Virus record (IMG/VR): IMGVR_UViG_3300046462_000310
Span: 5,737-69,736 of that record
Direction: 5' to 3' (one strand)
Source of the DNA: a virus
DNA: 64,000 nucleotides
Part shown: one piece after another, positions 26,770-62,680 of the stretch
Layout: each line of letters opens with the position of its first letter
How positions within the stretch are numbered: the stretch's first letter is position 1
The notes under the pieces: model-generated
Told to the model about the DNA's origin: nothing
What the model saw: the letters and a program-made list of their open reading frames with translations, nothing else
Databases searched by the model: none
Program-made: the position numbers and the translations under genes

Positions 26770-27937
26770 ATTGCTCCAGTTTCTTTTCGACTTCTCGTAT
26801 CACTCGCTCTGGTTTGATGCTCCCTAGTACTTCGCACCGGCCAGTCTTATTGCACGGTCCGTGTAACGGGAATTGATGTCGCCCAGGTAAAGCATGATGG
26901 AAGCACGGAGCGCACGCTCCCTGTCCTTGTAGTGCAAACGTCTTCGGCGCATACGCCGTCCTGAGCGTCCACGGAAACGGCCCATAAAGCGCGACGCAGG
27001 GGATATTCAACGCGCCGGCGACATGCGTAAGCGCACTGTCGGGCGCCACCAGCACATCGCACGTCATTAAAATCGCGCAGCTCTCCCTGAAACTCTTCCC
27101 GAGCATCATTAGATTCACAATGCCGTCGGGCTCATTCGTCTTAATCTCCCCCGGACCGCCAAACAAAAACACTTCGCGTCCGTCCATCCAGAGTTTCTTA
27201 GCCACTTCGAGCATGTGCGGATACATCCGGCAATGCCCGCTCGCCGTCATCTGTATCCCTACCCGCTTATCGCGTTCCGACTTTTTTGGAAACTCCGTGA
27301 TCGCCGCAGCCAGCTCCTCTTTCGTCACAAAATACCGCATCCGTCTGTCGGTGAGATCAAGAGCGCAACGTTTCGCGATCAGATCAACCGCGTGTGTGTT
27401 CAGTGCCTCGGGATTCTTCTCTATGATTCCCTCAAGCCAAATAATTGCGTCGAAATCGTGCCAGCACACTTCCGCGTCCTCTTTCTGTTCCCTGATTTCC
27501 GATAGAGGAACCGGATACGAAATCACGTCCGTAACGTCCGGGTTATTCAGTAGCACCGGCTTGAACCGATCAAAGCACGCCACGTAAATCTGAACCTTCG
27601 GGAACCGACGCTTAATCTCCGCGATGGTAGGCGTCAAAAATAACAAGTCCCCGAACCCACCGGGACGCACAAAAAGAATCCTGCGCTCATCCCATCCCAG
27701 TTTATCGTCGAACGGCCTGCCCTTGAGTTCCTTTTTGCTGACCGACTCCGCCCATCCGTTCGCCAGCATTTGTCCGGCAGAAACGTCCTCGCAGACGTAC
27801 TCACCAGGAGCCAGTCCCAGTGGATTCTTTTCTGTTACCGTAGCGACGTGCACAACGATTGTTTTTTCATACTGCTGACTGTGGCGGACCTTGATCTTGT
27901 GGAGCTTCGGGTGGCGGAGGCGGCGCCGCGGGTTCAT
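26756..27937 (-). CDS. Glycosyltransferase family 9 (heptosyltransferase-like)
   Basis: RPGGFGDLLFLTP, DSALTHVAGALNIPCVALYGP, CAPC. Confidence 0.85.
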   Translation of the reverse strand: MNPRRRLRHPKLHKIKVRHSQQYEKTIVVHVATVTEKNPLGLAPGEYVCEDVSAGQMLANGWAESVSKKELKGRPFDDKLGWDERRILFVRPGGFGDLLFLTPTIAEIKRRFPKVQIYVACFDRFKPVLLNNPDVTDVISYPVPLSEIREQKEDAEVCWHDFDAIIWLEGIIEKNPEALNTHAVDLIAKRCALDLTDRRMRYFVTKEELAAAITEFPKKSERDKRVGIQMTASGHCRMYPHMLEVAKKLWMDGREVFLFGGPGEIKTNEPDGIVNLMMLGKSFRESCAILMTCDVLVAPDSALTHVAGALNIPCVALYGPFPWTLRTAYAPKTFALQGQGACAPCFHHALPGRHQFPLHGPCNKTGRCEVLGSIKPERVIREVEKKLEQYAGR

Positions 27938-38253: not shown

Positions 38254-38766
38254 TTAGTGATGCCACTTCGCCGCGTAATCCAGTAAGCGTGTAATTCTTT
38301 CGGGGTTTTCTTCCATTAAGCCTAATGCGGTGTTGCATCTAGCGCATAGTAATCCTCGTATTTCCCCCGAGCGATGGTTATGGTCAACGGCTAGTCGCCT
38401 TCCTGATTTGCATCGCTCCTTGCAAACGGCGCATGAATGATTTTGAGCTTTCAGGAGCGCGTCGTATCCATCGACCGTTAATCCGTGACTCCACATCAGG
38501 CTACGTTTCCGGGATGCTTCTTTATTGTTTCGGTTCGGCCTAATTTTATCGTAATGGTGCTGGCATAAGCCATGTGCCTTAGACCTATTCTTGCAACCGC
38601 GCTTTATGCAAAGGCGTTCTTCTTTTGCCCACTGCCTCAACACCGTAAGATCGGAACCATGTTCTATCTGTCTCCGATGACCAGAGCAGTACAATAGGCG
38701 TTGCTTTCTCAGATTTTTACATCCTGGGAATTTACAAAAAAGCTGACCAAGTTCTACTTGTTCCAT
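38254..38766 (-). CDS. Endonuclease VII-family HNH nuclease with N-terminal Zn fingers
   Basis: CAVC...LAVDHNH...RGLLCARCNTALG. Confidence 0.85.
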   Translation of the reverse strand: MEQVELGQLFCKFPGCKNLRKQRLLYCSGHRRQIEHGSDLTVLRQWAKEERLCIKRGCKNRSKAHGLCQHHYDKIRPNRNNKEASRKRSLMWSHGLTVDGYDALLKAQNHSCAVCKERCKSGRRLAVDHNHRSGEIRGLLCARCNTALGLMEENPERITRLLDYAAKWHH

Positions 38767-39059
38767 TGCTTGGCGTTCGCAGCAAACGTAGCACGCTTGC
38801 GCGTCAACGGATTCGGACTGTTTTTCAATTCCGCCGTGGTCTTGCCGGTCCGCGCCTTGAGCGCATTGAACTTGCCTTTGTTCGCTGGGTTGATGTGGAT
38901 CCCACCTTTTCTATTTCTCGGCAGTGTGTCCACCCCTCTTTTGGGCTGATCATCTTCGTCGTTATCGTTAATCATTTTCTTGCCTCCTTTCCATAGTTTA
39001 TGAATGTCGTCTGGTAAAAATTGCGCTGGTGGCGCACCTATTACGCTGCTTGCTTCCAT
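38754..39059 (-). CDS. Small basic phage protein (true start probably near 38974)
   Basis: IHINPANKGKF...KRATFAANAKQW motif. Confidence 0.55.
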   Translation of the reverse strand: MEASSVIGAPPAQFLPDDIHKLWKGGKKMINDNDEDDQPKRGVDTLPRNRKGGIHINPANKGKFNALKARTGKTTAELKNSPNPLTRKRATFAANAKQWNK

Positions 39060-42000
39060 TGCTTCACGATGTTTACACGGTTCGCCTGCGGTGTCGAACC
39101 TTTCGGAAACATCTCGCGCTTGATTTGCTCCGTAGCTTGAGTGTGTAGTTTCTCGATCAGTTTTACGTCTTCCTCAGTGGGTTTGGCGATCTGTTGAGAT
39201 GTGAACCGTCCGGTTAAAAGTTGGTCGAACCGTTTGCCGGCCGCGATCTGATACTTGGTCGATTGCGCAGGCGTCATCTGCTGCGTCTTCCCATGAATAT
39301 CTTGGTATGTCGTTCCGGGCTCGGTAACGGCCTTTTGGTCTCGTGGGTGACTATTATTCCAATGAATCAGGAGGCGATCTGCCTTTTTGAGTTCATCGTA
39401 CGGATGAATAGCGGCCATCGTGAACATTCGGGTGAACCAGTTCCCCGTCTTTTTAACAGGGTTTCCGTACACGTCGATCTTCGGCTGCCGCAGACTCGGC
39501 ATCGGCAAGAGATTGTATGCGAGATTCGAGTGTTTGGCGTCAGGGACGAAATCATCGTAGTTGCGCAACGGTTGACGGATTAGATTCGGCACCAGCCAGT
39601 TCAGGAACAGGTGAGGCACGGCCTGTGTCACCGGGGTTTCACCCGAGAACATCTTCGAGAGACCGTCCAGGTTCATCAGGAAACTCTTCTCGTCTGTCTG
39701 GGCGAGCAGATAACCGGCTAACGCGTCCACGGCTTCCCGCGGCCCCAGTTCGCCCTTGAGGAGATGCTTCGTGTTGATCAACGTGTCAGCCACGGTCCCT
39801 AGTATCGTCGCCGCCGGTTCGTATTTTCCGTAATTGAAATTTACCCCGTTGCGGCCACCTATCCTAATCACGTAAGGACCGCCATACGCCCGCTGTTGTA
39901 GTTCTCTCACGCCTTTCTTGAGTTGCGTGTAAGGCGTCGAACCTGTGATTAAAACGTGCTTATCGTCGTCGTCACTGTCGCCAGCTATAATTCGCCAAAT
40001 GATTGCGCCAACGGCCAGTGCCGCTATCGACTTGGCGATGTCTCGGATCTGTTGCGGTTGCGAGTAGTTAGATTGAAACTTTTCGCCGTTCCAATTAAAA
40101 AAGCCTTCGCCGGCGTCATACGAAGACTTGGCCGCTTTCGTGAACTTGATCGGAGTAGTAACCGGAGCCGCGACACCGCGCGCAGCGTTTTTCAGGTAAT
40201 TGTATGGAAGCTGCACGAACGGGAAGAAATACCCCCAAGCGTGACTCCGGCTCCTGGTCTGCGCGAACTGCCCTACCGCGTTGTCTATCCAGTTGCCCTT
40301 AATTCCACGAACCCAGTTTCCTTTCGAGTCCTTGAATGGCACGGGTTCTCGTAACGCCATCCACTTAGCGAAATCTGCAGCCTTAATCCATGCCGGGCTG
40401 CCAGGCGTAGCGACAAGCTCGTTCATTCGTTTCGTAAGCGCATCCCCAGAGAGTCCTTCTCGTTTAGCCATCCGGTACGCTACCGGCGTAACTTCCATCA
40501 TCCCGTTCAACGTTTTAATGAATCCGTCCACGAACCACAGAACTCGCGTCGGCATCCTGATGACGCGTCCCCGTACGGGGTTCCAATTCCCGAGATTCTT
40601 CTGTAGCGCGTCCTCGACAGGTTTGGCTTTGTCACCAAAAAACTGTTGCAATGGTCGCTCGGAAATGGACGGACGGTGAAAGGTTTGCTCCGCGTTAAGT
40701 TCGCCTGGGTACAGTTCGGACTGACTGTTTAGAACCTCTTGATCGAATATGTCACTCTCTGTGGACCATTGACGGGCGCCTACTCGCAACGCTCGGGCCA
40801 GCGAAGGAACCACTCCCCTGAAGATGTATTTGAACTCCTTGAACGTCGGCGCATCCGAGTTCTGGTACATCGGCATGAGATTAACAAGACTTTCGAGTCC
40901 GCGCATAACGGTGAACTCGAAAGCACTGTTCGCTAGTAAACCAACCTTGTACGTGATGTGCGTGGTAGGACCGGATAGCAGATTTTGGAGTCCCGCTTCG
41001 TAAATCATGTCGGCGCGATTACCGTTAGCCGCCTGAGCTACGCGCGCAATCTTCGCGACATCATCCACGCTCCCGAGATCCGCGCCTTTACGCACCATCA
41101 TCTCTTGATACAGCGGCAATCCAGGCTGCCCGAGCACTCTGCCGGTGTAGGGCGGCTTTTGACCTTCAGGATACGGAACCGGAGCGTTCTCCCGACGCGC
41201 AACATCTTCCGGGGATTCTATCACGGTCCGCGGCACCTTCGGCGGAACGAAAATCTTAGAGCGTTTCCGCTTTGTCACCTTGAATGTCCCTTGATCCTTC
41301 GCGGATACCAATCCCATGCCACGCATGATCTTGCGGGCCTCGGCTAACGCGTCCGCGTCGCTGATCTCCTGAGCGCGAAGTGGCTGCGTTGCCAACATCC
41401 CCTCGAAACTCATATTCTCGACGCGTAGCCCTGCCTTCACCTTGGCAACCAATTCCTTCTCAACCTGGTCGTTAAACTGGTCGATCGTGTCTCTCACGTC
41501 CTTCTCTGTGAGTCCTGTCGCCTTGGCGATCTCTTTCGAGGTTCGCTCCCCACCGATCGCCAGCTTTAAGGCTTTCTGATGCGGCACATCCAGATTTTTG
41601 CGCTGGTTTTCCAGAAATTCTTTCCCTTTCCCGTGCAACTCCCAGCCGCCGCCCATAATGTCTTCGAGTGTCACGCCACCCTTGGAAATGTAGGAAAAGG
41701 CCTTTTCAAGCTGGTCCAGGCGCTCTTTCATGGCGGCATCAAGCATCGCGCGCTTCTTCGCCTTATCGGGCTCACGCTCAATCTCCGCTTCCTTTGCCGG
41801 CGGCAATGTCGAAATCACTTTGGTTAGAAATTCCCGATTCCGTTCCTCGGGCGTCTTATGCGGGTCGAATCCAGCCGCGAGATCCCGCGCGGTCTGTCCA
41901 CGGATGTTCCGATAAGCAAATCCTGCCGCAAACATATTGCGGAGTCCTTCAGGAGAGGTGTCCCGACTCAGATCGGCCAGAAGCGTCTTAGCCGCCATCA

Positions 42001-45000
42001 CTTCGCTGTCACGCAAGGTATCGCCATTCAACCATCGTTGCGCGACTTCTGTGGCCGAGATCGGATTCTTCTCAGCTTCCCGCTGCATTTGGTCCCGCGA
42101 CTTCGGTTTCCAGAGATCAGTGTAATACTGGTCCACCGCGCGCTGCGACGCTTCGCTGGCACCCATCGCCAGGTCAGGACGCCCAATGGTGTAACGCCCG
42201 CGCTCTTCCGCGTTCGACTTATCGAACAAATTCTCAAGCTCATCCGTATTCAGGCTGTCGATTAACTGTTGTAACGGATCCGCGCTGGATTGCGCTTTGA
42301 GTTCGTCCTTAACGTAAGAATCTATGACATTCAGTGCATCACCTGATTCCAGTCCACCCTCGTCACTGGTAAATGTATATCCTTGCTTTTTTGTAAGCGC
42401 CAAGGCCTCATCTCTGTCAACAAACCGGCCTTTGGATGTCGTGTAACCGTACTCCGTTCTGTCATCCTGAGAGATTACGAACCTTGCCGTGCTGTCAGGA
42501 ATGGCGTCCACTAATGCGTCGGCGTGCGTACCCAGTGAGGTAACGACGCGACCGTTAGGTAATTTGACCGCTACCTTTTCAATCCTCTCGTCTTTCGAAA
42601 TCGGCTGACTCAACAAATCACTCACCTTCGTAATGCCCACTTCCCCCAGCTTCCGACGCATCCGTTCCATAGCGGTTGTTGCCAACTTACTCACAGCCTG
42701 CGGGCTCACCCCGATCCCGTCCGCGATTTCCCTAATCGATTTCCCTTCCAAAATGCCGTTGAGCGCAGCCTGCATCCGTTCCGGTAACTGCGTCACTAAT
42801 TCGTTGATCACCTTGCGCCCTTCATCCAGTGCCGCTTCACTGCGCACATCGGACGTGCTGGGAATTAAATCCTTACTTGTCTCGTTCCGGCCCTCGATCG
42901 GCGCCTCAAGCGATCGCGTTTCCTGAATCCGTTTCAACCGGTTCCCGCGATCATACAACCCGCGCAGCTCATTCCGGACCGCCGTGACCGCAAACGGCCG
43001 AAACGCGCCCTTGTCCGGATGGTACGATTCCGCCGCGCGGGCCAACGCAATCCGGGCGTGTTGCTCCAAGTCATCTCGTTCCAGAGGGCCTTTGACGTTC
43101 TCGAAACTACGGGCAATCCTCATAGCTAGTGGTAATTCTTCATTAAATCTCTCCGTAGCTGGAGACGGACCGCCCTCGGGCCGCTGCGTAACTAATGGCT
43201 GTGATCGCAAAGTCTGGACCGCTTCCCTGATCGGCGTTCCCGCCCCGGCCCCCGCGTAGCTTTGCACCGCCTCGTATGCGTGATCTCGGTCCAGGAATCG
43301 CCCATTGGTTGTGGTGAATCCCTCCAGTAATCCAGGGATACTTCCCTCAGACCATCCCCGCCTGCTCACTTTCCCCTCTCGGGCTGCAGCGTACGCCGCA
43401 GATAAGGCGTCATCGTGATATGCCCCCGTGAAAATCTGACCATCCGGAAGCCGCACCGCCGCCGCCGAGATCCGTTCCCCCTCGTTATTGATCGGCTGAC
43501 TCCGCAGAACGTTTAACGCCTGCGTCCGCAACGCCACGCCCTTGCCGGTGCGTTCCTGCTCAATCACATCAAACACTTTCTGCCACGCGGTATCCAGCAC
43601 AGATCGTTCCTCGCCCTCCGGATAGGGTTTGAGATCGAACATCTGGTAGAACTTGTTCTCAACTCCGTGCACTAGGTAATCACTACGACGCCCTTCCGCC
43701 GACAGCTTGTCATGCACGAACGATTCGAACGACCGCGCCCCCATCTCGTGCGGAGTGCTCCAATAATCGCTCGATCGAAAATCATCGATCTTGCGCGACT
43801 CCCTGAAGTAATCCGTCGGACGCGATTTCACTTCCGTTACGCCTTCACTCGCCTTGGCGAGACGTTCTTGCGCGTCAAACATCGATTTCAACTGCCAAAA
43901 GAGTTGCTTGCCGAGGCTGTGATCCGCGCTGGTCGCGAAGCTGCGTCCGAGCACCTCCTTGTAAACCGAGTTCAAATCTTCAATCGCCTGGTAACTCTCT
44001 CGTCCGCCAAACCTGCTCTTCTCGCTCTCGATAAATTTCCGATCTCCAACATCTCCGGCTTCAATCTTCGCCGAGATCGTATCAAACCGTTGCAACTGCT
44101 GTGAAGTAGGCGGCTTCTTCGACCGAGAATAAACGTGATACGTCTCCAGTTGCCGGCGAATATCTTTCAGTGTGCTCGCGACGTGTTCACTCATCCTGTC
44201 GGCGTTCTTTTCCGCCAGTGACTTATCGATCTCGCCTGTGACATTTTTGCGAACCATCGCCTCCATCACGGCTTTAAAGGCGTCCTCCAGTTCAGCGCGA
44301 ACCTTCGTTTTATAACTGAATCCGTGGCTCACGTAGTTACCAGCCTTATTGGCGGAAACCTTGAATGTGCCCTCCGTCGTCTTTTCGGAAGGCGCCTTGG
44401 TGTCCTGTCGCGCCAGATAATGATCGAACGCGTGAAACCACTCATGCGCCGCGCTACCAGCCCCCTTGATCTTCGTCAGGTTTATGACTGCGTAATCCGG
44501 CTCGTAATGAGCGCGAGCGCCTTCCAAACCGTGTCCGCGCGCTCCAAATGCTATCGCCAGTTCGCCGTTCAGTGATAACGCGCGTGGATCTACGCCCAGC
44601 GCATGCGCGAGGTCATACATGGCATCGTAAGCGTGATTGAGTGCCGCCTGTCCTGAACTCCCCATATTCCAGTTACCAAACTCGCCGCCGCGAAACCCAA
44701 ACGCGCTCTGAAACATCCTCGGAGTAACATCGCCGAGCTTCGAAGTCGTAGCGGGTCGATGCGCCGGGCCGGTGCGCTCAATGTGGTCCAGCCACGGTTT
44801 CTCCGGGAAATTGAATTTATGATTGATGATCTCTTCTGGGTTTGTCGCCATGTAGTGCATGGCGTCCTCGCGAGTTGCGAACCCGTCCTTAACGGTTGGA
44901 CGCTTCCGTGGCCCAAGGCTGCGCTGGATGGCATAGTTATCGGTTTCGCCTGAGCGCGCGATATTGCGAACATCGTGGTTCCGCGACACCTCTAGTAACG

Positions 45001-48000
45001 GAATCGCCTTTTCAGCTTCCGCCTTGCTCTGGAACGCTGATCGACTCGCTAACCCGCCATCGCTCAACCCGATCACCCATTCGCCCGGTTTCCGAGCGTC
45101 CTCAAAGACGTGATATTTACGCATCCACGATGGTCTCTCATCCGCTGTCTTGCCTTCGCCTTTCGGACCAGTCTTTTCGGCCAAGTCTTTGCGCGCCCCA
45201 CCAATCTTCTCTCCGAAATCCTGAATCACCGCGTTCGAAGCGCGATGCAATTCCGAACCAGCGACCGGCGATGTCTCAGGAACTCCTAGTGGGAGTTCTT
45301 CCGAGACCGAGGCAGGCTGTTGAGTTTCGCCCGTTTCGGCAACTTTAATCCCTTGCTCGCCTGGTTCCACTCGTCCACGTTGACTCCCTGTTTCTCCAAC
45401 TCCTTCTTGTGGATGTTGAAGTACGCCGCCTGTTTCAGGCTTTTGTATGGCATTTGATTCTCCTCCTGTATTTCTCTCAGCTAACGCGACAGCGTTTCGC
45501 TGTTCACCTGCATCCAACCGATCAAACAAATTCAACTGACCCGGAAATTCTCTATTCGCGAAGCGCGAACGTAATCTCTGGGAGAACAACGTCCCTTGCT
45601 CTTCGCCTTCCGGCATCCTTCCGACAGCACCGCGCTGATCAAACAACCCCTGCTGCGATTGCACCTCGCCGCCTTGAATCGGACCTTCTGTCCATTTCGC
45701 CTTGAATTGCGCAACAGATTGCTGCCCGCGCGTCTCATCGCCAAACATGAGTTTCTGTCCCAGCGCGGACTCGGCCTTGTCGAGTACGCGCCTCTGATTC
45801 TGAGTTAACTTGGCACCGCTCTGCTCCAGTGAGAAAAGTTTCCGGTAAATTTTAGCCCAATCCTGTAGTGATCGCTGCACCGGCTCGGACGTAATTTGAG
45901 GAACTGTGTAAAGCGGAGCCTCACCAGATTCACGAGCGGCAATCTCAGCCTCCATTTTTGATCGTGTAGGCTCATCGGCAGACTGAACCCTCTGTTTGAG
46001 TTCCTCTGTCGTGTATGCTGGGAATGTCCTGCGACGCGTGGCAGACGACTGCGCCACGTTCCAAAGCATCTCCCTATCAGTGTCATTCGTGGTCGTCTTT
46101 TGCGCCTTCAGTATCGCCGCCGCACTCGGTGGCTCCTCATCCCCGAAAAACCGTTGCTGATTCGGATCCCCGTAATCCACAACCGCTTTCACGTATCGCA
46201 TTAGCGGATCCACCACCTGCTTAACGCTTCGAGCGTTCGCTAAAAGCTCTAGTATCCGAGCATCCAACGGATCTGTAGCCACGGCCCTGTGGGCCGTCCC
46301 AAGATCGAATGCTCCTTGCGAAAAATAATCCGATACGTTCCTGACTTCACCCGAGTCCTTCGCCCGTCTGTAATCCAGTAACGTCGTCAACGCGCGTCCC
46401 AGATTCGGTGTAATCGATAATGACGGGTTGATCGTATCCACGTTCACTATCGCCGGACCAACCTTCGATAATCCCGACACCACCTGTCGTATCCCAGGCG
46501 TGTTGATGTTATCCATCAAACTCGATAGTACCCTGTCCACGCCCGGTTGTTCACCGAGTAGATGTGCCAATAGCGCGGCCTGAGCGCGACGCTCAATCTT
46601 GCCGTTGTCCGGCGTACCATCTTCAAATCGGAGCTCTTTAGGAGCCCCAACGGAGTTGTAAAACGCCGTCAAAAATTCGTGATTGAAACTGCCGTCCTCG
46701 TTCGGATTCAACGATTGCGTAAGCGTCGGATCAGAGAACAAATTGCGATCGGATAACGCTGTCTCCGCAATGCTCCGTTGCTCCGTAGCAGCCGTGTTAC
46801 TCGCCTTAACCAATTCCTGTTGGCTGAGACCGCCGCGCTCCGCAGATGTCACGCGGACGAGTGCCACCGGTTCGCCATCTGGAATATCAGTTTTGATCCC
46901 GAGTCGCGCAGCCTCGCCGCGCGCCCACTTATCGTAAATCGCAGCCTTATCCGGATGCGACGCATACATGTCCCGGATCGCCATCGTCCGATTATTCCCA
47001 ACTTCAACGCTGCCATCAGGCGTAGTAATCGGAGCCCCATCATTCAGCGTAGGCGACGCGCCCCAAGCGATTTCCACATTCTCCGGCGTAAGATTCTGTA
47101 TGATCTCCAGCCGTTGCGCAGCGCCAGTCCGTTCCCGGTCAATCCTATCCTGCGCGGCCCCGCGCTCAGTGTTGATGGTAAGCGACTTGATAGGCGCAAG
47201 CGCCCATTTCCCAGAAATCACTTCCGACCCACGGGGATTCTTCGTGCGCCACTCACCCGCCAAAGGAATCGATTGCCCCTTAAACTCAGTAGAGTTTCCT
47301 AATTCAACATTGGGCGTTGGGCGTTGAGTGTTTGGGGTTTCTCCCGCCGTTCCTACGGCTCCAGTTCCTCGATCAGTCTCCCCGCCTCCGTCACGTCCAC
47401 TGCCCACTGGAACAGTTCCAGCCTGAACGCCTCCCGTTGCTCCAGATTCTCTTGTACTTGAATTGTCAGGTGCGGTGGCTCCGGCACCGACGGAAGGATG
47501 AACCTCGGATGTTTTTGTAACTGGGGATTGCTCATCAAAACGACCACGTAGCACGTATGCCAAAAGCTGTTCAGCCGAAACCGGTATTTTTGATTCTTTC
47601 GAGGCCGCAACGGCTTCCTGTATGCGCGACTTCGGCGACCGAACCCCGATTTTCACCGCCGCTTTCGTAGCAGCAACAACCTCTGCCTTCTCCGATTCCT
47701 CTTCAGTTCGACGTTGGGCGTTGGGCGTTGAGCGTTCGGCGTTTGCCGCTAATTCAATTCGGCTCGCTGGTTCAACCGCTCCACCAGAAACTTCCGGGAC
47801 ACCCGTATCTCCTCTTCCAGTTCCGCGAGTCCCTGTAATCTCTCCAGCACCAGCACCCGCTCCTTCGCCTCGTGTCTCCCCAGGAGGACCACGGGCAGTT
47901 TGTTCGGTGGGAACATTGCTTTTAGCTTTGGTTTCACTACTACCCTTTCCAGACTCCATCTGGGCGTGAGCGTCAACCTCTTTTACTTTACTGCGGATAA

Positions 48001-51000
48001 ATTCCTGCGCTTGCCCGACCTGTTTTACTAGATCCTCGTCGGCGCCGGACTTGCGAAGTTGCCCCTGCATATCACGAAAAAACCGGAGCAAAGTCGCAAG
48101 CGCCTTTCGGTTTTCGACGATGAATTGTCGGCTCGACTGCTCCGGTAGAAATTTGTCTTTCAGTCTAATCTTGCGGCCTTTGGCCAGTTGCATGTCGCCC
48201 GCCAGCCAATAGGCCCACATCTCATGCGCAAAATGGTAATCGCTCGAGCCTTCCGATTTATAGAAGGTCCGCATGGCGTCCTGAATCTTTTTCGGGAGCG
48301 ACTGGTAAATCTTAACCAGGTCGATGGGGCCGCGCACTTCGCCCGTCTTCGGATCCCGATTTTCCAACGCCGTAGTGACCGCATGCGTAACTTCGTGCGT
48401 CATAATGTTCGACGTGTGATCGGGGCTGCCCGTGTATTCCGCCGCGTGCCGAATCACGTCAGGAACCGAAATTACGAGTTTCCGTTCCGTAGATAGTAAC
48501 GCGCCACCGCTCTGTTGCCCTTCCAGTGTAAATCCGACACCCTGGAACGCTTTCTGCCAGCGTTCGTATTCCGGCTGCAGCACTTTCGCCACCACGCGCA
48601 CCTGTTTATCTTCCGCTGGCGTGAGCTCTCCGCCCTTCTCCGCCGCGGCGCTGGCCACTGCGCTCTCGACAAAATCATGTGGCTGGACTGCTTCGGTCGG
48701 GCCCGGCACTCGTGTAACATCACGAACCATGCCTTTGCCGGGCTGGATCTCACCTGCGACCTGCGCTTGCGCGGCCTGCTCACTCGGAGCCTGGACTTGT
48801 TTGATCTCCCGTTCACCCTTTGGCCCTTCCACTTCCACCGCAAAAGTCGGTTGCGATTCGGGCTTGAGCGTCTGTTGCCGCTGGGTTTCTTCATCCTTCG
48901 GCAAAATCTGAGCTGTAATCGGAGCAATCTGTTGAACCCGCGCCAGCGCCGCGTCGGTGATAATCGGCTTCGATCCGTCTGGGCCTTTCGCCATCTCCAC
49001 GCGAGCAACGCCGTTCTCGTCTTTGGATAAAACGGCCTTCTTCTCCGCAGCCGTAAGCGCATCCATCGGCTGCCCCTGCGAAATCTTAACGAGACCACGA
49101 AGCGCATCCTGTGTGACCGCATGCTCTTCGGGCGTCTTACCCTCCATCTGTAGGTTGTCGATCTCCTGGTGAGCCTGATCGACGGTCGGACGAGCAGCCG
49201 GTGCTTGCTTTTCCGTTGGACGTTGAACGTTTTCGGGCTGACCTGCGTTCCCCGTGGAACCTTCAACCGTAGCCCCAGTCTCCGGTTTAGGAACCGGCTT
49301 GTATTCCATCCCTAACGACTGCGCGAACGCCGCCACCTTCTCATGCGTAGTGCCTGCTACTTCTGGATCAATGCCACCGAAAAACGCGCGAAACTCCGGA
49401 GAAACACCGTCTTTTTTTGCCTTCGCGATGGATTCCTTGACTAAATCCGCTGTCTCCGGCCTCGCGTTCGCGGCCATACTCGCTGCCCTCTTGAAAGTGT
49501 CACCCAGCCCTTCACCGCTCAGGATTCCCATAATCGCCGCAGCTTGAGCTATAGATTGGAACGTCGGGTAATGAACCTCGTCTGGATTAAGACCGATCGC
49601 GTGCGTAGCCGCATCGAATCCCGGCCTTAACGCAGCCTCGAACGCAACCCCAGCACCAGCACCACTGGCGAGTTTAGTAGCGATGAACTTTACCGCAGCA
49701 CCCGCTCCCTGTTTCTCGGAAATAACGCTGGCTGCCTTAGCAAAACCTTGATACGAAGCGACCGCAGCCGGTCCCATGCCAGCGATCTCGCCGGCCGCCG
49801 CGTATCCTGGTTCCAACTTCGCGCTGCTTTCCAGCGAATTAACCAAGTCGCTGTAATTTGACGCGCGATCCAGTAATGCACCCGCCGCCTTTTGCGTGAT
49901 TGCCGTGCCAGCCAGGAAAGCTATACCGTGCACTAGAGCAGGTAAGGCCACCGCACCCCAGCCGCCGACAGGAGCAGTCAGGCTCGCACCACCAACCGCC
50001 AATTCAGGATCGAACGGAACCACCGCAGCCGAAGCGGCAGCACCACCTTGAAACGCGAGATAAGACTTGATCCCCGTATCTACGAACGCCTTGAGTTTCG
50101 GATTACTGCCGGCGGCATCCATCAACGCCTTATATTCGTCGTCAGCCTTCCGAGCGTCGGCCAAGTGGTCCTTGACGTAATCGGGAGACAACGCGCCATC
50201 GCGCATGGCTTTTATCATCGCTGGTCCAGTGTAGCCACGTTCGAACGACACGGTTCCGGCGTCTTTATCGGTGTGGTAAAGTCCGTCGGGAGTGTTACCT
50301 GATTCCCAATCCTTGCTGATTTCCTTCTCGGCTAATGCCCTCGATGTTGCATCCTTGGCTATTTGCTGAAGTTCTGGGCTTAACGTTGGCTGCCCAGCTC
50401 CGGCCTGGACCTGGTTGAACTTCTCCTGTAGCGCATCCCGCTGCGGAGCTAAAACAGCCTCGTTGTCCTCAAATTGCTGTTGTACCACCGAGTTGCGCTC
50501 GTTCGCCATCTGGTCGTGCGCGTCGATCAACGGTTGCAATTGCGCTTTTCGCTGTTGAACCTCGTCCAGCATCGGATTCAACCGGTTCAATAACGTCTGG
50601 ACCTGCGCTTTCTCGCGAATATCCGTCAAATCACCGATCGATCGACCGCCCAAAATCGTGTTCACCCGGTCCTGCAGCTTGCCAGCGACCTTCTCAAGCG
50701 GGTCGATTTGCGCCTGGGCCGCTTGGATTTCAGCGCGGGCCGGATTTAACCTGTCGTCATACGCCTTAGCGGTCGCATTGAGCGCATCCGAAACGTCATT
50801 GTGCGCCGCGTCCAGCGCATCGCGTTCCTGCATCAGTGGGCCGTAATTCGGGTCGTTCCTGAATTGCGCTTCCTGGTCTTGCTCCTGGCCTACACCCAGT
50901 TGCGCTTTACGGTCCTTTAGTGCTTTCAGGACTGGATCTTGTTCAGGGTCGAGGCCGCGAGCGCCGAGCGCGTCTTCGCGCTGCTGGATTACGCGGTCGA

Positions 51001-52171
51001 AATCTCCTTGCTCTTTCGGAGCTACTTCACTCCATCCCGCGCGGTTAGCATGAGCATCTTTCAACGCCTGGCGTGCACCGGAGAGCTCTTGCGCGACGCG
51101 ACTTTGCGGATTTAGAACCGAATCGCTCTTCGCGCTACCGGGCGAGACTGACGTTCCCGCGGGCGAGTAACCGGCTTCCGTTAGATCCTGAATCTGTTTT
51201 TCGAGTTCAGCCTTTCGGTCTTGAGCGGCTTTCGCGCCTTGCGATAAAGTGCCGCCTACACCAAAAATTCCGACACTATCCTTTTCGTTGAGTTTATCGG
51301 GCGTGATCCCATCGAGTTCCTTTTGTAACGCCTGTATCTGCTGCGCGTTCGCCTGAATGTCCTTAACTCGGGATTGAACATCCGAGAAAGCAGAATTGAC
51401 GTGTTCCCCGAGAGTTTCCTGAACCGCTGCGTGCAATTTTTTGTCCAGCGACAGCTTCGCCTCTTGCGCCGCCGCCTGGATATTTGGATCCTTGCTCTTT
51501 AATCCTTCATCGATTGTCCCTAGCGATTCCCACGGCGAATACTTGTTCTGCTTGAAGAGATGGTTCGGATAATCCGAGTGCGTCCCGATCGGAGCGTTGG
51601 CGTCAGGCTGGACCTGTTTCGGGCCCGAAGGCGTGTATTGCGTCTGTTGCGCTTGCCCTTGCTGGTCGTAGGTCACTGGGCCTTTGCCGGTCTTGTAAAT
51701 GACGTTCCCGTTTTCGTCGCGCTGCGGGACAAGATTCCCGTTCTCATCGCGCTCAGTCAGCACGCGACTCTGGCGAAGCGTATCCGCCGTTTCCGCGTTA
51801 TCGGCCTGTTGCTCGGGCCCAACCGCGGAACCGGCCAATCGTTGCTGGTAACGATAAGTCGATTGCGCGTAGTCATTCCATTTCTCGGCAGGAACAGGGA
51901 CATTGATAACTTGTCCGCGCCGGCCGCGTCGCTGCGTCGGTTGCGGTTCCTTCGGCGGCTCAAGCGTGTCGCCAGGATCTGGAACATCCGTCAGTTCTAC
52001 CGGCTGCGTCTGTGTGGCAGGACGAGCAAGCGGCTGCGCGTCCGCCACGGGATATGCGTTCGCCGGAGCACTCGGAGTGAGTGGTCTGTTTCCTACGCTT
52101 GAATCTACCCTGGCTCCCTGCTGTTGCTCTTCTTGAGGATCTTGGTCATCGGGATACGCCATATCACGCAC
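39041..52171 (-). CDS. Giant polyvalent / internal virion (ejection-type) protein, 4376 aa
   Basis: Coiled coils, hydrophobic segments, zincin HEVTH (about 48390), ParB-like domain (GNNRTMA, about 46990), LPD5-like DFGEKIGGARKD (about 45200), LPD1-like EFGNW/HEWFH/EMGARSFE (43560-44760), sigma70 domain (42640-43155), helical C-terminus. Confidence 0.85.
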   Translation of the reverse strand: MRDMAYPDDQDPQEEQQQGARVDSSVGNRPLTPSAPANAYPVADAQPLARPATQTQPVELTDVPDPGDTLEPPKEPQPTQRRGRRGQVINVPVPAEKWNDYAQSTYRYQQRLAGSAVGPEQQADNAETADTLRQSRVLTERDENGNLVPQRDENGNVIYKTGKGPVTYDQQGQAQQTQYTPSGPKQVQPDANAPIGTHSDYPNHLFKQNKYSPWESLGTIDEGLKSKDPNIQAAAQEAKLSLDKKLHAAVQETLGEHVNSAFSDVQSRVKDIQANAQQIQALQKELDGITPDKLNEKDSVGIFGVGGTLSQGAKAAQDRKAELEKQIQDLTEAGYSPAGTSVSPGSAKSDSVLNPQSRVAQELSGARQALKDAHANRAGWSEVAPKEQGDFDRVIQQREDALGARGLDPEQDPVLKALKDRKAQLGVGQEQDQEAQFRNDPNYGPLMQERDALDAAHNDVSDALNATAKAYDDRLNPARAEIQAAQAQIDPLEKVAGKLQDRVNTILGGRSIGDLTDIREKAQVQTLLNRLNPMLDEVQQRKAQLQPLIDAHDQMANERNSVVQQQFEDNEAVLAPQRDALQEKFNQVQAGAGQPTLSPELQQIAKDATSRALAEKEISKDWESGNTPDGLYHTDKDAGTVSFERGYTGPAMIKAMRDGALSPDYVKDHLADARKADDEYKALMDAAGSNPKLKAFVDTGIKSYLAFQGGAAASAAVVPFDPELAVGGASLTAPVGGWGAVALPALVHGIAFLAGTAITQKAAGALLDRASNYSDLVNSLESSAKLEPGYAAAGEIAGMGPAAVASYQGFAKAASVISEKQGAGAAVKFIATKLASGAGAGVAFEAALRPGFDAATHAIGLNPDEVHYPTFQSIAQAAAIMGILSGEGLGDTFKRAASMAANARPETADLVKESIAKAKKDGVSPEFRAFFGGIDPEVAGTTHEKVAAFAQSLGMEYKPVPKPETGATVEGSTGNAGQPENVQRPTEKQAPAARPTVDQAHQEIDNLQMEGKTPEEHAVTQDALRGLVKISQGQPMDALTAAEKKAVLSKDENGVARVEMAKGPDGSKPIITDAALARVQQIAPITAQILPKDEETQRQQTLKPESQPTFAVEVEGPKGEREIKQVQAPSEQAAQAQVAGEIQPGKGMVRDVTRVPGPTEAVQPHDFVESAVASAAAEKGGELTPAEDKQVRVVAKVLQPEYERWQKAFQGVGFTLEGQQSGGALLSTERKLVISVPDVIRHAAEYTGSPDHTSNIMTHEVTHAVTTALENRDPKTGEVRGPIDLVKIYQSLPKKIQDAMRTFYKSEGSSDYHFAHEMWAYWLAGDMQLAKGRKIRLKDKFLPEQSSRQFIVENRKALATLLRFFRDMQGQLRKSGADEDLVKQVGQAQEFIRSKVKEVDAHAQMESGKGSSETKAKSNVPTEQTARGPPGETRGEGAGAGAGEITGTRGTGRGDTGVPEVSGGAVEPASRIELAANAERSTPNAQRRTEEESEKAEVVAATKAAVKIGVRSPKSRIQEAVAASKESKIPVSAEQLLAYVLRGRFDEQSPVTKTSEVHPSVGAGATAPDNSSTRESGATGGVQAGTVPVGSGRDGGGETDRGTGAVGTAGETPNTQRPTPNVELGNSTEFKGQSIPLAGEWRTKNPRGSEVISGKWALAPIKSLTINTERGAAQDRIDRERTGAAQRLEIIQNLTPENVEIAWGASPTLNDGAPITTPDGSVEVGNNRTMAIRDMYASHPDKAAIYDKWARGEAARLGIKTDIPDGEPVALVRVTSAERGGLSQQELVKASNTAATEQRSIAETALSDRNLFSDPTLTQSLNPNEDGSFNHEFLTAFYNSVGAPKELRFEDGTPDNGKIERRAQAALLAHLLGEQPGVDRVLSSLMDNINTPGIRQVVSGLSKVGPAIVNVDTINPSLSITPNLGRALTTLLDYRRAKDSGEVRNVSDYFSQGAFDLGTAHRAVATDPLDARILELLANARSVKQVVDPLMRYVKAVVDYGDPNQQRFFGDEEPPSAAAILKAQKTTTNDTDREMLWNVAQSSATRRRTFPAYTTEELKQRVQSADEPTRSKMEAEIAARESGEAPLYTVPQITSEPVQRSLQDWAKIYRKLFSLEQSGAKLTQNQRRVLDKAESALGQKLMFGDETRGQQSVAQFKAKWTEGPIQGGEVQSQQGLFDQRGAVGRMPEGEEQGTLFSQRLRSRFANREFPGQLNLFDRLDAGEQRNAVALAERNTGGESNAIQKPETGGVLQHPQEGVGETGSQRGRVEPGEQGIKVAETGETQQPASVSEELPLGVPETSPVAGSELHRASNAVIQDFGEKIGGARKDLAEKTGPKGEGKTADERPSWMRKYHVFEDARKPGEWVIGLSDGGLASRSAFQSKAEAEKAIPLLEVSRNHDVRNIARSGETDNYAIQRSLGPRKRPTVKDGFATREDAMHYMATNPEEIINHKFNFPEKPWLDHIERTGPAHRPATTSKLGDVTPRMFQSAFGFRGGEFGNWNMGSSGQAALNHAYDAMYDLAHALGVDPRALSLNGELAIAFGARGHGLEGARAHYEPDYAVINLTKIKGAGSAAHEWFHAFDHYLARQDTKAPSEKTTEGTFKVSANKAGNYVSHGFSYKTKVRAELEDAFKAVMEAMVRKNVTGEIDKSLAEKNADRMSEHVASTLKDIRRQLETYHVYSRSKKPPTSQQLQRFDTISAKIEAGDVGDRKFIESEKSRFGGRESYQAIEDLNSVYKEVLGRSFATSADHSLGKQLFWQLKSMFDAQERLAKASEGVTEVKSRPTDYFRESRKIDDFRSSDYWSTPHEMGARSFESFVHDKLSAEGRRSDYLVHGVENKFYQMFDLKPYPEGEERSVLDTAWQKVFDVIEQERTGKGVALRTQALNVLRSQPINNEGERISAAAVRLPDGQIFTGAYHDDALSAAYAAAREGKVSRRGWSEGSIPGLLEGFTTTNGRFLDRDHAYEAVQSYAGAGAGTPIREAVQTLRSQPLVTQRPEGGPSPATERFNEELPLAMRIARSFENVKGPLERDDLEQHARIALARAAESYHPDKGAFRPFAVTAVRNELRGLYDRGNRLKRIQETRSLEAPIEGRNETSKDLIPSTSDVRSEAALDEGRKVINELVTQLPERMQAALNGILEGKSIREIADGIGVSPQAVSKLATTAMERMRRKLGEVGITKVSDLLSQPISKDERIEKVAVKLPNGRVVTSLGTHADALVDAIPDSTARFVISQDDRTEYGYTTSKGRFVDRDEALALTKKQGYTFTSDEGGLESGDALNVIDSYVKDELKAQSSADPLQQLIDSLNTDELENLFDKSNAEERGRYTIGRPDLAMGASEASQRAVDQYYTDLWKPKSRDQMQREAEKNPISATEVAQRWLNGDTLRDSEVMAAKTLLADLSRDTSPEGLRNMFAAGFAYRNIRGQTARDLAAGFDPHKTPEERNREFLTKVISTLPPAKEAEIEREPDKAKKRAMLDAAMKERLDQLEKAFSYISKGGVTLEDIMGGGWELHGKGKEFLENQRKNLDVPHQKALKLAIGGERTSKEIAKATGLTEKDVRDTIDQFNDQVEKELVAKVKAGLRVENMSFEGMLATQPLRAQEISDADALAEARKIMRGMGLVSAKDQGTFKVTKRKRSKIFVPPKVPRTVIESPEDVARRENAPVPYPEGQKPPYTGRVLGQPGLPLYQEMMVRKGADLGSVDDVAKIARVAQAANGNRADMIYEAGLQNLLSGPTTHITYKVGLLANSAFEFTVMRGLESLVNLMPMYQNSDAPTFKEFKYIFRGVVPSLARALRVGARQWSTESDIFDQEVLNSQSELYPGELNAEQTFHRPSISERPLQQFFGDKAKPVEDALQKNLGNWNPVRGRVIRMPTRVLWFVDGFIKTLNGMMEVTPVAYRMAKREGLSGDALTKRMNELVATPGSPAWIKAADFAKWMALREPVPFKDSKGNWVRGIKGNWIDNAVGQFAQTRSRSHAWGYFFPFVQLPYNYLKNAARGVAAPVTTPIKFTKAAKSSYDAGEGFFNWNGEKFQSNYSQPQQIRDIAKSIAALAVGAIIWRIIAGDSDDDDKHVLITGSTPYTQLKKGVRELQQRAYGGPYVIRIGGRNGVNFNYGKYEPAATILGTVADTLINTKHLLKGELGPREAVDALAGYLLAQTDEKSFLMNLDGLSKMFSGETPVTQAVPHLFLNWLVPNLIRQPLRNYDDFVPDAKHSNLAYNLLPMPSLRQPKIDVYGNPVKKTGNWFTRMFTMAAIHPYDELKKADRLLIHWNNSHPRDQKAVTEPGTTYQDIHGKTQQMTPAQSTKYQIAAGKRFDQLLTGRFTSQQIAKPTEEDVKLIEKLHTQATEQIKREMFPKGSTPQANRVNIVKQWKQAA
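45286..45453 (-). CDS. Nested 55-aa gene in the +1 frame of the giant ORF
   Basis: AGGAGG SD; MPYKSLKQAAYFNIHKKELEKQGVNVDEWNQASKGLKLPKR...; preceded by a dyad promoter. Confidence 0.7.
   Translation of the reverse strand: MPYKSLKQAAYFNIHKKELEKQGVNVDEWNQASKGLKLPKRAKLNSLPRSRKNSH
45488..45504 (-). promoter_or_regulatory. Internal dyad/promoter for the nested gene
   Basis: GACAGCG-TTT-CGCTGTT; TGAACA-17-TAGCTG. Confidence 0.6.
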
Positions 52172-54809: not shown

Positions 54810-55661
54810 CTAACGAGTCACAGCGTTAATATTGCATCTGTGACAGAGCGGTTGAAATTCGTCGTAGCCAAGCATGAACATCTGACCCTGATTTTTTTCC
54901 TTGTACCACGCCGGGGGGTGATCCTCCCAACCCCACGGAAATTTTGGGAGCAATTCCTGCTCTAAATCTCGTATCCTTTTGGCTTCCTTGGGGAACCATA
55001 TCTCGAGTTCTGAAAGCTCACCAGGTTCCGCAAACGCTCCGCATAAACACTCTCCACTCTTATGAATCAGGTCCACCACTTCATTCCTGTGTAGTGCGCA
55101 GTGAGCCATGCAGGTGGAGCAGTCCTTTTTAGTAAAATCATGGATGGCGTTTAACCACACTTGTCTGCCTTTCTTTTGGGGTTCAGGTTTGACGTTCCCC
55201 ATTCTACGAACGCTCTCATCTGATCTCGCTCCACTAATATAGAGCACGGGTCGGACTGGGGTTGCCCTTATGTCTCTCTCGAATCTAGCTAGCTGTCTTT
55301 CTTTTAACTGGACGTACATGGCGTAGTGCTGTGGTGCTCCGGGAAAACCATGCTCCCTCACAATATCTTCGTAAATCTGTGGGTCCGGCGTTCCGTCAGC
55401 CTTGGTGTTTTCTGTCGCCTTGTATTCACGTAGGTTCCAATTTCTATTAGAGCAAGTTGCCCTGACGTAATCTCGTGTCTGCTCGACTCCGATTCCAGTA
55501 TTGATATGCAGTGTGGTATCCGCGCCCGATTCATTCGCGATGAGTGTTGCCGTTGCGCTGTCGTGCCCTCCGCTAAACAACGCCACTATTGCGATCGGAT
55601 TAAATCGATCTACCGCTGAACGAACGCGATCAGTGGCGCGTTGAATTAATTCTTTCACCAC
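54810..55661 (-). CDS. PAPS-reductase-family (PP-loop) protein
   Basis: FSGGHDS, NTG, GARSDESVRR, SGECLCG, CHRC. Confidence 0.8.
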   Translation of the reverse strand: MVKELIQRATDRVRSAVDRFNPIAIVALFSGGHDSATATLIANESGADTTLHINTGIGVEQTRDYVRATCSNRNWNLREYKATENTKADGTPDPQIYEDIVREHGFPGAPQHYAMYVQLKERQLARFERDIRATPVRPVLYISGARSDESVRRMGNVKPEPQKKGRQVWLNAIHDFTKKDCSTCMAHCALHRNEVVDLIHKSGECLCGAFAEPGELSELEIWFPKEAKRIRDLEQELLPKFPWGWEDHPPAWYKEKNQGQMFMLGYDEFQPLCHRCNINAVTR

Positions 55662-57439
55662 CTCTGCGCCCCACCCGGTTTACTCAGTTCGGCTTCTTCG
55701 AGTTTCCGGAGATCGGGCGGTAGCCTTGGCGCAATCCGCGGCTCGGAGTAAGTCGTGGCGCCGGCGACGCACATCAGGCCAATCGCCGTCTCTAATACCG
55801 TGTCGTCGTGTTTCCCCGGCATCGCCTCACTGCGGCCGTTAGCCTTAACCACGAAGTTTTGCATCTCGGCAAGTGTAATCGGGCAATGAATCTCGATTCC
55901 TTCACTTTGCGTCCCACGTTCACGAATCGCTCGAGCAAGGTTCTCGATCATCATCTCGCGCGTAGCCGTTGTCGTTTGCCAGCCGTACGCTTTGGTTGTT
56001 TTGTTATCTCGGCGATTGAACACCTCGCGCAAATAAATGTTCGCACCGATCCGCAGCTTCAATAGCTCAATCAGTCCGCGGTCCATGTTCACTTCCGGAA
56101 CGATCAAGCAGTTGCCGTAATATTGTGCCAGCCGCCATACTTGCTCTTCTAACACGTCGATGTCCCATCGCAGTTCGTATTTCCGGTTACGTTCCCATGC
56201 GCCCCAGTCGTCAATCAGGCGCGCAACCTTTTTTGGCATCACCCAGCCGCGTCCTGAATCGAAATATCCCGCGCGGGTCACACTGACCGAGTGGTTATCG
56301 GGATCTTTCCCGCCCACCTGCGTTTCCCCGGTCATCTGATCGACACTGATTAAATAACGTAGGTCGCGCTTGGGTAATTCCCATCTCAGTATCCGGGCTT
56401 CTTCCGACGTGCACGGGCGCCACACGTATTTGTCACCAGACGGATCGAGTAAACCGAAGTCAGGCGGGTACAGCTTTGCCGCGGCCACCATCTTTTCAAG
56501 AATACCCAGGTTGAACCGCCGACGACCACTCGTTCTAAACGCACTTTCGGCGTCAAACGGGTAATCCTCGCAGAATTTGTCAAAATCTTTCGAGCACTCT
56601 TCCCTGATCGCCCATTGCATCCACGCGATTTGCCAGTCATCAAGTCCATATTGTTTTCGTAACTCATCCACCTTCTCGGGGCTCACGCATTGCTCGCGGC
56701 CTTCCTCGAGTTTCGGATCCCGCCGGCTATCAGGGAACTGGAACCAGGCTGCGAATAGTTTCACGTATCCGTCTTTCCCTGATTTCAGCTCGTCAAAGGT
56801 GATTCCGCCCTGCCACCGTTCGTAAAAGTCGCCGCTGGCGCCGTTGGCCGTCGATTCCAGAATGATCAGCGTCATCGCCTCTGGCGGAACGCACTTCAGT
56901 AATCCCGAAAGCAAATCTGACGCATTAGCCACTCCTTCCTCCGCCCAGCGCGCGACCTCTGTGGCTACCACCGCCTGATACGTTCCTGATCGGCCGGCCT
57001 CGCCGTTCTTAGCCGTCAACTGCTCCATGAACGATCCATTCACCCACCTGGCTTCGCGGTCCAACACACTGCATTTATTGCGCGCCTCAAACGTGTCGTT
57101 CTGAGCAAAAGTCTTCAACATCCGGAACAGATTCGATGATTGCGCGTGCGCCCCGCCGATAATGGCGCCGTTCGACCGCATATTCGACAGCCACCGGTAA
57201 GCGTTCCACACAGACGACGTGCTACTCCCCTTCTGCCGCGGCTTTAACTTGATCATCCGGCACGGTTTCCCGTTCATCAGGCACCAGTTCACCACATCGC
57301 TCTCAAGTTTCTGTAGATAATTGGCTTTTAGCTCCGGAAACTTGAGTAACTGCCCCACCTTCGGCTTAATCGCACCGTACGCCTCGAAACACGCCGCCGG
57401 CGTGGTCCGAAACATGATCTCGAGCTTTTCCTTAGTCAC
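55655..57439 (-). CDS. terL: Terminase large subunit
   Basis: KPRQKGSST (Walker A), ATEVARW, ESTANG, ISVD, PEVN, HDDTV. Confidence 0.9.
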   Translation of the reverse strand: MTKEKLEIMFRTTPAACFEAYGAIKPKVGQLLKFPELKANYLQKLESDVVNWCLMNGKPCRMIKLKPRQKGSSTSSVWNAYRWLSNMRSNGAIIGGAHAQSSNLFRMLKTFAQNDTFEARNKCSVLDREARWVNGSFMEQLTAKNGEAGRSGTYQAVVATEVARWAEEGVANASDLLSGLLKCVPPEAMTLIILESTANGASGDFYERWQGGITFDELKSGKDGYVKLFAAWFQFPDSRRDPKLEEGREQCVSPEKVDELRKQYGLDDWQIAWMQWAIREECSKDFDKFCEDYPFDAESAFRTSGRRRFNLGILEKMVAAAKLYPPDFGLLDPSGDKYVWRPCTSEEARILRWELPKRDLRYLISVDQMTGETQVGGKDPDNHSVSVTRAGYFDSGRGWVMPKKVARLIDDWGAWERNRKYELRWDIDVLEEQVWRLAQYYGNCLIVPEVNMDRGLIELLKLRIGANIYLREVFNRRDNKTTKAYGWQTTTATREMMIENLARAIRERGTQSEGIEIHCPITLAEMQNFVVKANGRSEAMPGKHDDTVLETAIGLMCVAGATTYSEPRIAPRLPPDLRKLEEAELSKPGGAQRW

Positions 57440-57451
57440 ACCGAGAAAAAA

Positions 57452-57526
57452 TTACGGAGGCGGGATTCGAACCCGCGATTTCGGCTTATGAGACCGACGA
57501 CTTAGACCAGGCTTGTCAACTCCGTG
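57452..57526 (-). tRNA. tRNA-Met(CAT), initiator type; CCA not encoded
   Basis: Cloverleaf with C1xA72 mismatch, A11-U24, loop CTCATAA, T arm GCGGG-TTCGAAT-CCCGC. Confidence 0.9.
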
Positions 57527-57533
57527 ATAAAAT

Positions 57534-62209: not shown

Positions 62210-62226
62210 TTCACTTGGCAGGTATC

Positions 62227-62243: not shown

Positions 62244-62266
62244 GCAACCACTTTCTTTACAATTTT

Positions 62267-62671: not shown

Positions 62672-62680
62672 CTCTTTACC

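Follow-up and report, generated by a model that had tools for sequence, protein, structure and literature searches.

Three routes are known by which phages take over host transcription: some inject whole RNA polymerases (N4, phiKZ-like and crAss-like phages, P23-45), some inject enzymes that alter the host polymerase (T4 Alt), and some produce sigma factors once inside the cell. Free-standing phage sigma factors, such as those of phrog_1740, T4 gp55 and SPO1 gp28, are sigma-70-family proteins that redirect the host core enzyme to phage promoters, and they are encoded by small separate genes expressed post-infection. Here, we describe a module of the same family that is, in contrast, a cassette of a 4376-residue protein encoded in the structural gene block of an uncultivated phage, within a 64,000-nucleotide stretch of DNA (IMG/VR record IMGVR_UViG_3300046462_000310, positions 5,737 to 69,736; hereafter the window, whose numbering is used below). 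The original prediction for this stretch had proposed that the virion may inject a ready-made sigma factor that redirects host polymerase before any phage transcription, as an alternative to N4-style injected polymerases. If this is true, a virion-carried sigma factor would be a fourth and cheaper takeover route, in which ~200 residues do the job of a ~3500-residue polymerase.

In the accounts given in PMC4496689 and PMC13434306, the N4 virion RNA polymerase gp50 travels in the phage head, leaves it together with the DNA and begins early transcription without new protein synthesis; the protein described here resembles it in being giant (~3500 residues in gp50) and in belonging to a genome of ~70 kb, but gp50 is a complete single-subunit polymerase, whereas the present protein would supply a specificity subunit alone and would need the host core. 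Polyvalent proteins, as set out by Iyer et al. 2017 (PMC5512222), are alike in that a single, very large polypeptide combines numerous unrelated domains, with LPD1 and DdrB-ParB among them, and that their genes lie beside head genes; that account predicts that they are packaged and delivered, counts DdrB-ParB among the domains exclusive to the phage-type ones, records them in Verrucomicrobia prophages and proposes both a jump-start of transcription and self-processing. The transcription cargo named there is an N4-like polymerase and RNA polymerase-modifying enzymes, not sigma, a word with no occurrence in the main text of PMC5512222, although its supplements may list the domain. The same source describes T4 Alt, an injected ADP-ribosyltransferase, which is alike in being packaged in the head and in reprogramming the host RNA polymerase upon entry, but which modifies the polymerase enzymatically, whereas the module would serve as a subunit. 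A literature search of titles and abstracts returned no paper on a virion-borne sigma factor. We regard sigma as a new cargo class for polyvalent phage proteins, the domain having already been flagged by automatic pipelines, without an analysis in the literature searched; three relatives already carry the Joint Genome Institute automatic name 'RNA polymerase sigma factor'.

The sigma module and its predicted docking on core polymerase

The giant open reading frame (P0001; 39041..52171) runs uninterrupted for 4376 codons from a GTG start on the minus strand, as do all features of its protein given below; its database version, P0002, starts 41 codons further in. The sigma cassette occupies residues 2993–3190 (42602..43195), with edges taken from homology breakpoints, and comprises a sigma-2 domain, a 3.2-like linker and a sigma-4 domain. 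The span originally proposed, 42640-43155, lies inside the reading frame and in frame, but the module bounded by the breakpoints, 42602-43195, is slightly wider; the region-2-like and region-4 segments expected within the 4376-residue frame were found on the minus strand at residues 3009–3069 and 3129–3175. Pfam places Sigma70 region 2 at residues 3010–3070 (42962..43144; Sigma70_r2, 34.7 bits, cut-off 24), including the region 2.2 helix DDLEQHARIALARAAESY, and a region 4 helix-turn-helix at residues 3122–3171 (42659..42808; Sigma70_r4_2, 28.0 bits, cut-off 25.7). The Pfam check thus bore out the two predicted regions through these families, but not through Sigma70_r4, which stayed under its cut-off (20.8 bits, cut-off 24.1). 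Between them, the string SLEAPI (residues 3087–3092, 42896..42913) aligns with the beginning of the RpoS stretch leading into sigma-4; we take this S-L-D/E-x-P string of RpoS to be the opening of region 3.2, a linker whose path leads through the polymerase. PHROG assigns residues 3023–3180 to phrog_1740, 'RNA polymerase sigma factor' (E 6e-14), and the module is the sole sigma match in the whole 69.7-kb record.

A profile built from the window module and seven homologous modules (alignment A1) was run against the PDB, where it matched 76 distinct sequences at E <= 0.01, headed by RpoS (7f0r_F, E 5.1e-15) and followed by FliA, SigA and RpoD, so that profile searching recovers the predicted sigma fold. 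Each match was split in two, one part covering regions 2.1–2.4 and the other running from the S-L-D/E-x-P string through regions 4.1–4.2; in RpoS, these correspond to residues 100–193 (sigma-2) and 222–329 (sigma-4). The sigma-3 domain is absent between the two aligned stretches, and the layout therefore resembles that of the two-domain extracytoplasmic function (ECF) sigmas, while the sequence, by these profile comparisons, is closer to groups 1–3, the nearest PDB sequences among cellular sigmas being RpoS, FliA and SigA. An AlphaFold model of the module (mean predicted local distance difference test, pLDDT, 77.4) gave 56 Foldseek matches in the PDB at E <= 0.001; judged by title, the matches listed are all sigma or holoenzyme entries, ECF SigL and SigH included, save one that names just a sigma-dependent activator complex. 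The template modelling (TM) scores are low, 0.29–0.36, because the two domains are freely placed in the unbound model.

Among 47 modules, taken from clusters at 50% identity, conservation falls on residues expected of a working sigma factor: region 2.2 keeps its Q, A and R in 70–90%, VRNEL its N in 90% or more, the LP.R string preceding the helix-turn-helix its L and P in ~80–90% (its R in ~50%), and the recognition helix (G.S.QAV) its Q in ~80%. Taken together, the profile matches and the predicted fold indicate that residues ~2993–3190 form a genuine minimal sigma-70-family factor.

Docking was predicted for a homologue. Residues 1–400 of the beta-prime subunit of Cerasicoccus frondis were co-folded with the module (216 residues) encoded by the prophage of the same strain, together with three controls, and the complex reached an interaction prediction score from aligned errors (ipSAE) of 0.82, against 0.00 for the top control; among solved complexes, 58 of 80 reach the ipSAE mark that it passed, and among mismatched pairs, 2 of 110 do. 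Three co-folding runs share at least 82% of their contacts, with a partner pLDDT of at least 74. In the predicted interface, beta-prime residues 260–300 face module residues 56–74 (region 2.2), with the conserved Gln at the centre, and the linker is placed along beta-prime residues 253–265 and 319–327. This predicted interface is the canonical one, and since sigma-core complexes have already been solved, the pass may reflect likeness to them or model memory. The window module shares four of the nine predicted contact residues of the C. frondis module (D, D, Q and R, read from alignment A4). The proposed check by structure prediction with the polymerase core thus bears on the C. frondis homologue, for which a canonical contact with the beta-prime of its own host is predicted.

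Cassette boundaries and spread among giant relatives

The module behaves as a discrete unit in comparisons between relatives. BLAST segments shared with P0003, P0010 and P0004 begin at residues 2985–2988 and end at residues 3192–3197, and in P0004 the domains that flank the module are unrelated to those of the window protein. Short related motifs stand at both edges, LRSQP at the N-terminal one (residues 2988–2992, 43196..43210) and LLSQP at the C-terminal one (residues 3186–3190, 42602..42616), and further homology breaks fall at LFSQR (residue 2195) and LRSQP (residue 2889). The variant is specific to each protein and yet identical on both sides of its module, with LSAP/LSAP, MARP/MARP, SQRP/SQRP and LHAGG/LHAGG in different relatives. 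In a blind scoring, the C-side motif matches the 60 residues upstream in its own protein with a mean 5-mer score of 14.8; cross-protein pairs reach 12.5 (p 2e-4 by Mann-Whitney test, n=47) and random windows 12.6 (p 2e-4, n=47). A strict pattern picked post hoc, L-x-[ST]-Q-[PQRA], is enriched in the window protein, with 8 occurrences against 0.69 in shuffles, and a loose boundary regular expression showed no enrichment in eight proteins.

The codons beneath the motif copies vary at synonymous sites, so that it is the peptide, and not the DNA, that appears to be conserved; these synonymous differences rule out the motif as a recombination linker. From this sequence pattern, the boundary motifs are likely processing sites, and the sigma module, instead of working as part of the giant protein, may be excised from it. 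The motifs suggest that the giants may be polyproteins, which, if so, would change how their domain lists are to be read. In the C. frondis prophage (locus G001:C22:70900-74448), the sigma module is bracketed by a linker motif of the form V/T-L-G/S-A-R, with one or more further copies upstream, and is followed ~100 residues later by the HExxH string HEFAH.

A word-based search among giant proteins returned six others (2464–5976 residues) with modules 39–58% identical to that of the window, five of them on contigs of 64–69 kb, and six further contigs with the module were found in IMG/VR. Among 3081 candidate proteins shorter than 2406 residues, a search for a free-standing version (E <= 0.001) gave one match, a 2171-residue relative. 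The family itself was delimited by an exhaustive search with the C-terminal 1087 residues, which yielded 1360 cluster representatives at E <= 0.001, of which 280 reach E <= 1e-30; the best 150 matches to this C-terminal module are mostly giants that carry it at their extreme C-terminus. The survey of homologous giants proposed at the outset found the same insertion repeatedly: by the first pass of a model built from A1, 38 of the 102 family members of at least 3000 residues hold a full sigma module, 5 a partial one and 59 none. One of the 38, P0006, had come in via a sigma-based search, without which the count is 37 of 101. 'Embedded', the original wording, thus understates a module that, by sequence comparison, is a recurrent cassette of the whole protein family.

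The counts leave out later rounds of an iterated local sigma model, which from the third round on apparently drifted to helix-turn-helix stretches nearer the C-terminus, presumably the second helix-turn-helix of the C-terminal module. Many family members also show a weak second match to the sigma model ~430 residues past the sigma module. The cargo between the conserved ends varies among P0004–P0007 and P0009, where precomputed Pfam assignments include Zeta toxin, SNF2 helicase, His_Phos_1 and others; unlike this variable cargo, the sigma cassette is present in every relative that the sigma-region searches returned.

Against the module profile, no host sigma from five Verrucomicrobiota genomes exceeds 31.8 bits, compared with 107 and 141 bits for prophage modules, and on these scores the module is best described as a separate sigma clade rather than a recent capture from the host. 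Among deposited phages, a DNA search with the sigma region gave no match, and tblastn with the sigma module gave 7 weak matches alone (26–40% identity), all to unannotated gut phage contigs. The C-terminal module likewise had no tblastn match there, and the family has no cultured representative deposited in that collection; an affiliation with Bcep22-like phages, considered as a guess, is unsupported for the same reason. When one genome per prokaryote species was scanned, 8 loci encoded the C-terminal module, all in Verrucomicrobiota by title. The family is a large one in a phylum with very few studied phages, and its prophage member in C. frondis, a cultured and harmless marine strain, makes the idea of a delivered sigma factor directly testable.

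Virion association, proposed mechanism and rival readings

The giant protein unites the unrelated domains LPD1, ddrB-ParB and sigma regions 2 and 4 within one open reading frame. Two of the neighbouring domains originally named were recovered well above their cut-offs: LPD1, at residues 2798–2873 (43553..43780), has 66.1 bits in Pfam (cut-off 27), and the ParB domain, which is ddrB-like, has 47.9 bits (cut-off 27.6) at residues 1656–1773 (46853..47206). An LPD5-like stretch was located at residues ~2406–2489 (44705..44956), but it remains below threshold (22.7 bits, cut-off 27). The 'zincin' amounts to two HExxH strings, HEVTH (residues 1259–1263, 48383..48397, a possible zincin motif by sequence pattern) and HEWFH (residue 2576); none of the Pfam peptidase families matches the giant protein. 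Nor do polymerase families occur among the Pfam or PHROG matches across its whole length, where no T7-like single-subunit catalytic domain was found.

The gene lies in a head and packaging neighbourhood. The terminase large subunit gene (55655..57439, minus strand) is upstream and the portal gene (27867..30287, minus strand) downstream in the same strand block, and the order terminase, giant gene, portal recurs in three genomes: the window, the C. frondis prophage and a metagenome-assembled Verrucomicrobiia genome. In Cerasicoccus frondis NBRC 105381, the three genes lie on contig 22, with the terminase at 62207-63949, the portal at 77022-79061 and, in between, an open frame of 3987 codons whose sigma module is at 72400-72948. 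By sequence and gene order, we classify the giant protein as a polyvalent-type protein within the terminase-portal block.

Each of the conserved terminal modules contains one transmembrane-like helix, at residues 735–759 (49895-49969, from a hydrophobicity scan) in the N-terminal module and at residues 4044–4064 in the C-terminal one. A model of the C-terminal module (pLDDT 65.4) has 41 matches in BFVD at E <= 0.001, including an 'ART-PolyVal-like' entry at E 5.7e-19 and entries annotated 'Internal virion protein' from Pelagibacter phage EXVC018P and Synechococcus phages S-CBP2 and S-CBP3 (E 1e-8 to 1.5e-6, TM 0.35–0.48); others are 'Large polyvalent protein associated domain' proteins and a 'MuF C-terminal domain' protein. 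Foldseek of the same model against the PDB gave no match at E <= 0.001, and a likeness to T7 core proteins (E 0.7–2.4, TM ~0.08) was rejected as evidence. In the ESM Atlas, the matches were viral hypothetical clusters alone, with LPD38 (61% of the members of one cluster) and LPD22 (57%) as weak leads. Gene position, polyvalent domains, the terminal transmembrane-like helices and the C-terminal fold likeness together suggest that the giant protein is probably carried in the virus particle. The original description of a putative ejection protein accordingly stands as regards the polyvalent-type domains, the terminase-portal block and the C-terminal fold of annotated internal virion proteins, whereas delivery itself is inferred.

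The reading that we favour, tentatively and with slightly less than even confidence, is that a virion-borne sigma factor, either freed from the giant protein or carried by it, captures the host core polymerase at the onset of infection. The giant protein would be made late and packed into the head via its conserved terminal modules; a protease would cut the cassettes apart at the short linkers, which here read L-x-S-Q-P, a step suggested by the sequence pattern; and the cargo would enter the cell alongside the DNA at infection. There, the region 2.2 helix of the sigma module would bind the beta-prime clamp helices of the host, as predicted for the homologue with its own host, and the module would steer the polymerase to phage promoters ahead of any phage protein synthesis.

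Several observations weigh against this reading. The module that was docked is a homologue only 24% identical to that of the window (alignment A4), and the BFVD names are annotations, not experiments, reached through a model of moderate confidence (pLDDT 65.4). With 59 of the 102 giant relatives devoid of the module, according to a clade-specific model, sigma appears on sequence grounds to be dispensable to the protein family. The strict linker motif was defined only once the data were known, the HExxH strings are unconserved in relatives as read by eye (the first His of HEVTH is lost in P0004 and P0005), and the prohead proteases Peptidase_S78, Peptidase_S49 and ClpP have no match in the record, which is 76% complete. 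The record further encodes an integrase and a RecT/exonuclease pair, and a temperate phage could begin from ordinary host promoters, weakening the need for a delivered sigma factor. A promoter search over 23 intergenic stretches found no 8-, 9- or 10-mer (one mismatch allowed) that recurs across more of them than it does in shuffles, and no cognate promoter candidate. Finally, at region 2.3, where the Trp pair of group-1 sigmas serves to melt the -10 element, a by-eye alignment sets FAVTAVRNEL of the window module against YATWWIRQTI of RpoS, with T and A, neither of them aromatic, at the positions of that pair.

We consider it unlikely, though deserving of weight, that the cassette, free or attached, instead serves as a late sigma factor in the producing cell, where it would bind the host core and boost the structural genes, with packaging being incidental. 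The position of the gene in the late morphogenesis block, from terminase to portal, would suit such a role, as would the resemblance of the module to a working sigma factor (in Pfam, PDB profile, conservation and predicted docking) and the fact that the record encodes no other sigma. The late sigmas known from phages, however, come from small genes of their own that are switched on ahead of the late genes, whereas a late sigma buried in a 13-kb late gene would have to be produced before acting; few intergenic gaps and no enriched motif occur in the long minus-strand block, and the accompanying cargo domains are typical of delivered polyvalent proteins.

The missing promoter and Trp pair lend themselves to another reading, to which we also assign a low probability, namely that the module is a tether or decoy that contacts polymerase without initiating, either bringing other domains of the giant protein to the core or blocking the sigma site and shutting down host transcription. 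Conserved region 2.2 contact residues, predicted to lie on the clamp helices, are what it would require, and T and A at the Trp positions in the by-eye alignment and the lack of a cognate promoter in the 23 intergenic stretches fit it. Yet the DNA-facing residues are conserved as well (the VRNEL N at 90% or more and the recognition-helix Q at ~80% of the 47 modules), and the 3.2-like linker, which is not known to matter outside the holoenzyme, is retained. Since group-3 sigmas such as FliA likewise lack the Trp pair, its absence speaks, as far as the alignment goes, against group 1 and not against membership of the sigma-70 family.

Rather improbable, in our estimate, is a variant in which the uncut giant protein forms an envelope channel through its two transmembrane-like helices and its sigma cassette captures core polymerase at the entering DNA end; transcription would then launch the early programme while drawing the genome into the cell, in a sigma-only analogue of the N4 virion polymerase and of T7 transcription-driven genome entry. 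A decayed or re-used helix-turn-helix pair that binds DNA alone, for instance to hold the packaged genome end, without polymerase contact, is very improbable, since both Pfam sigma domains exceed their cut-offs in canonical order with the linker present, the core-binding helix is conserved and the predicted beta-prime interface is canonical, even though a second, isolated sigma-4-like helix-turn-helix in the C-terminal module shows such folds being used outside a sigma context.

Further features of the giant protein and its phage

That second helix-turn-helix lies at residues 3532–3572 (41456-41578), where Pfam HTH_29 and HTH_Mga both match below threshold, within the conserved C-terminal module that is the signature of the family (residues 3282–4376, 39044..42328). 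In this module, the transmembrane-like helix is directly followed by an acidic run, DSDDDDK (residues 4065–4071; helix and run together at 39959-40042), and then by LITGSTPY, all among the most conserved columns of the family; G264, D265, D268 and G277 are invariant in alignment A2 of this area. The N-terminal module (residues 1–1547, 47531..52171) is rich in coiled coil and was delimited by a BLAST segment (residues 21–1547 of the query) with ~50% identity to the closest relative, P0003.

A small domain of ~90 residues with the core ...VRLPDG...GFTTTNGRFLDRD... occurs in two copies on either side of the sigma cassette, at residues ~2894–2987 (43211..43492) and ~3191–3281 (42329..42601), neither belonging to a Pfam family; a segment of the second (residues 3183–3261) aligns to residues 2178–2254 of P0003. 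The same domain stands ahead of sigma in P0003 and close to the start of P0009. Residues 1150–1500 and 1800–2300, like these flanking domains, had no significant match in Pfam.

The record is a 69.7-kb linear virus contig (76% complete by CheckV) that also encodes terminase, portal, capsid and tail-fibre genes. The phage is temperate-looking, with a genome of ~70 kb, and its host is probably a member of the Verrucomicrobiota. Two related HNH endonuclease genes, both matching phrog_3377 and phrog_374, flank the giant gene, one (52164-52859) overlapping its start and the other (36900-37508) ~1.5 kb beyond its end, and an endonuclease VII gene (38254-38766) lies ~0.3 kb past that end. Immediately 5' of the terminase gene is a tRNA-Met (anticodon CAT, 57451-57527), while a gene resembling 3'-phosphoadenosine-5'-phosphosulfate reductase (54810-55661; 23.8 bits, cut-off 22.5) overlaps the terminase gene's end. 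A 1.1-kb stretch of the long minus-strand block, 60452-61536, is free of open reading frames of at least 90 residues and could harbour small genes, or else a site for regulation or packaging. Directly after the portal gene, a family-9 glycosyltransferase (heptosyltransferase, 55.1 bits; 26756-27937) possibly modifies the host surface, as a temperate phage might do.

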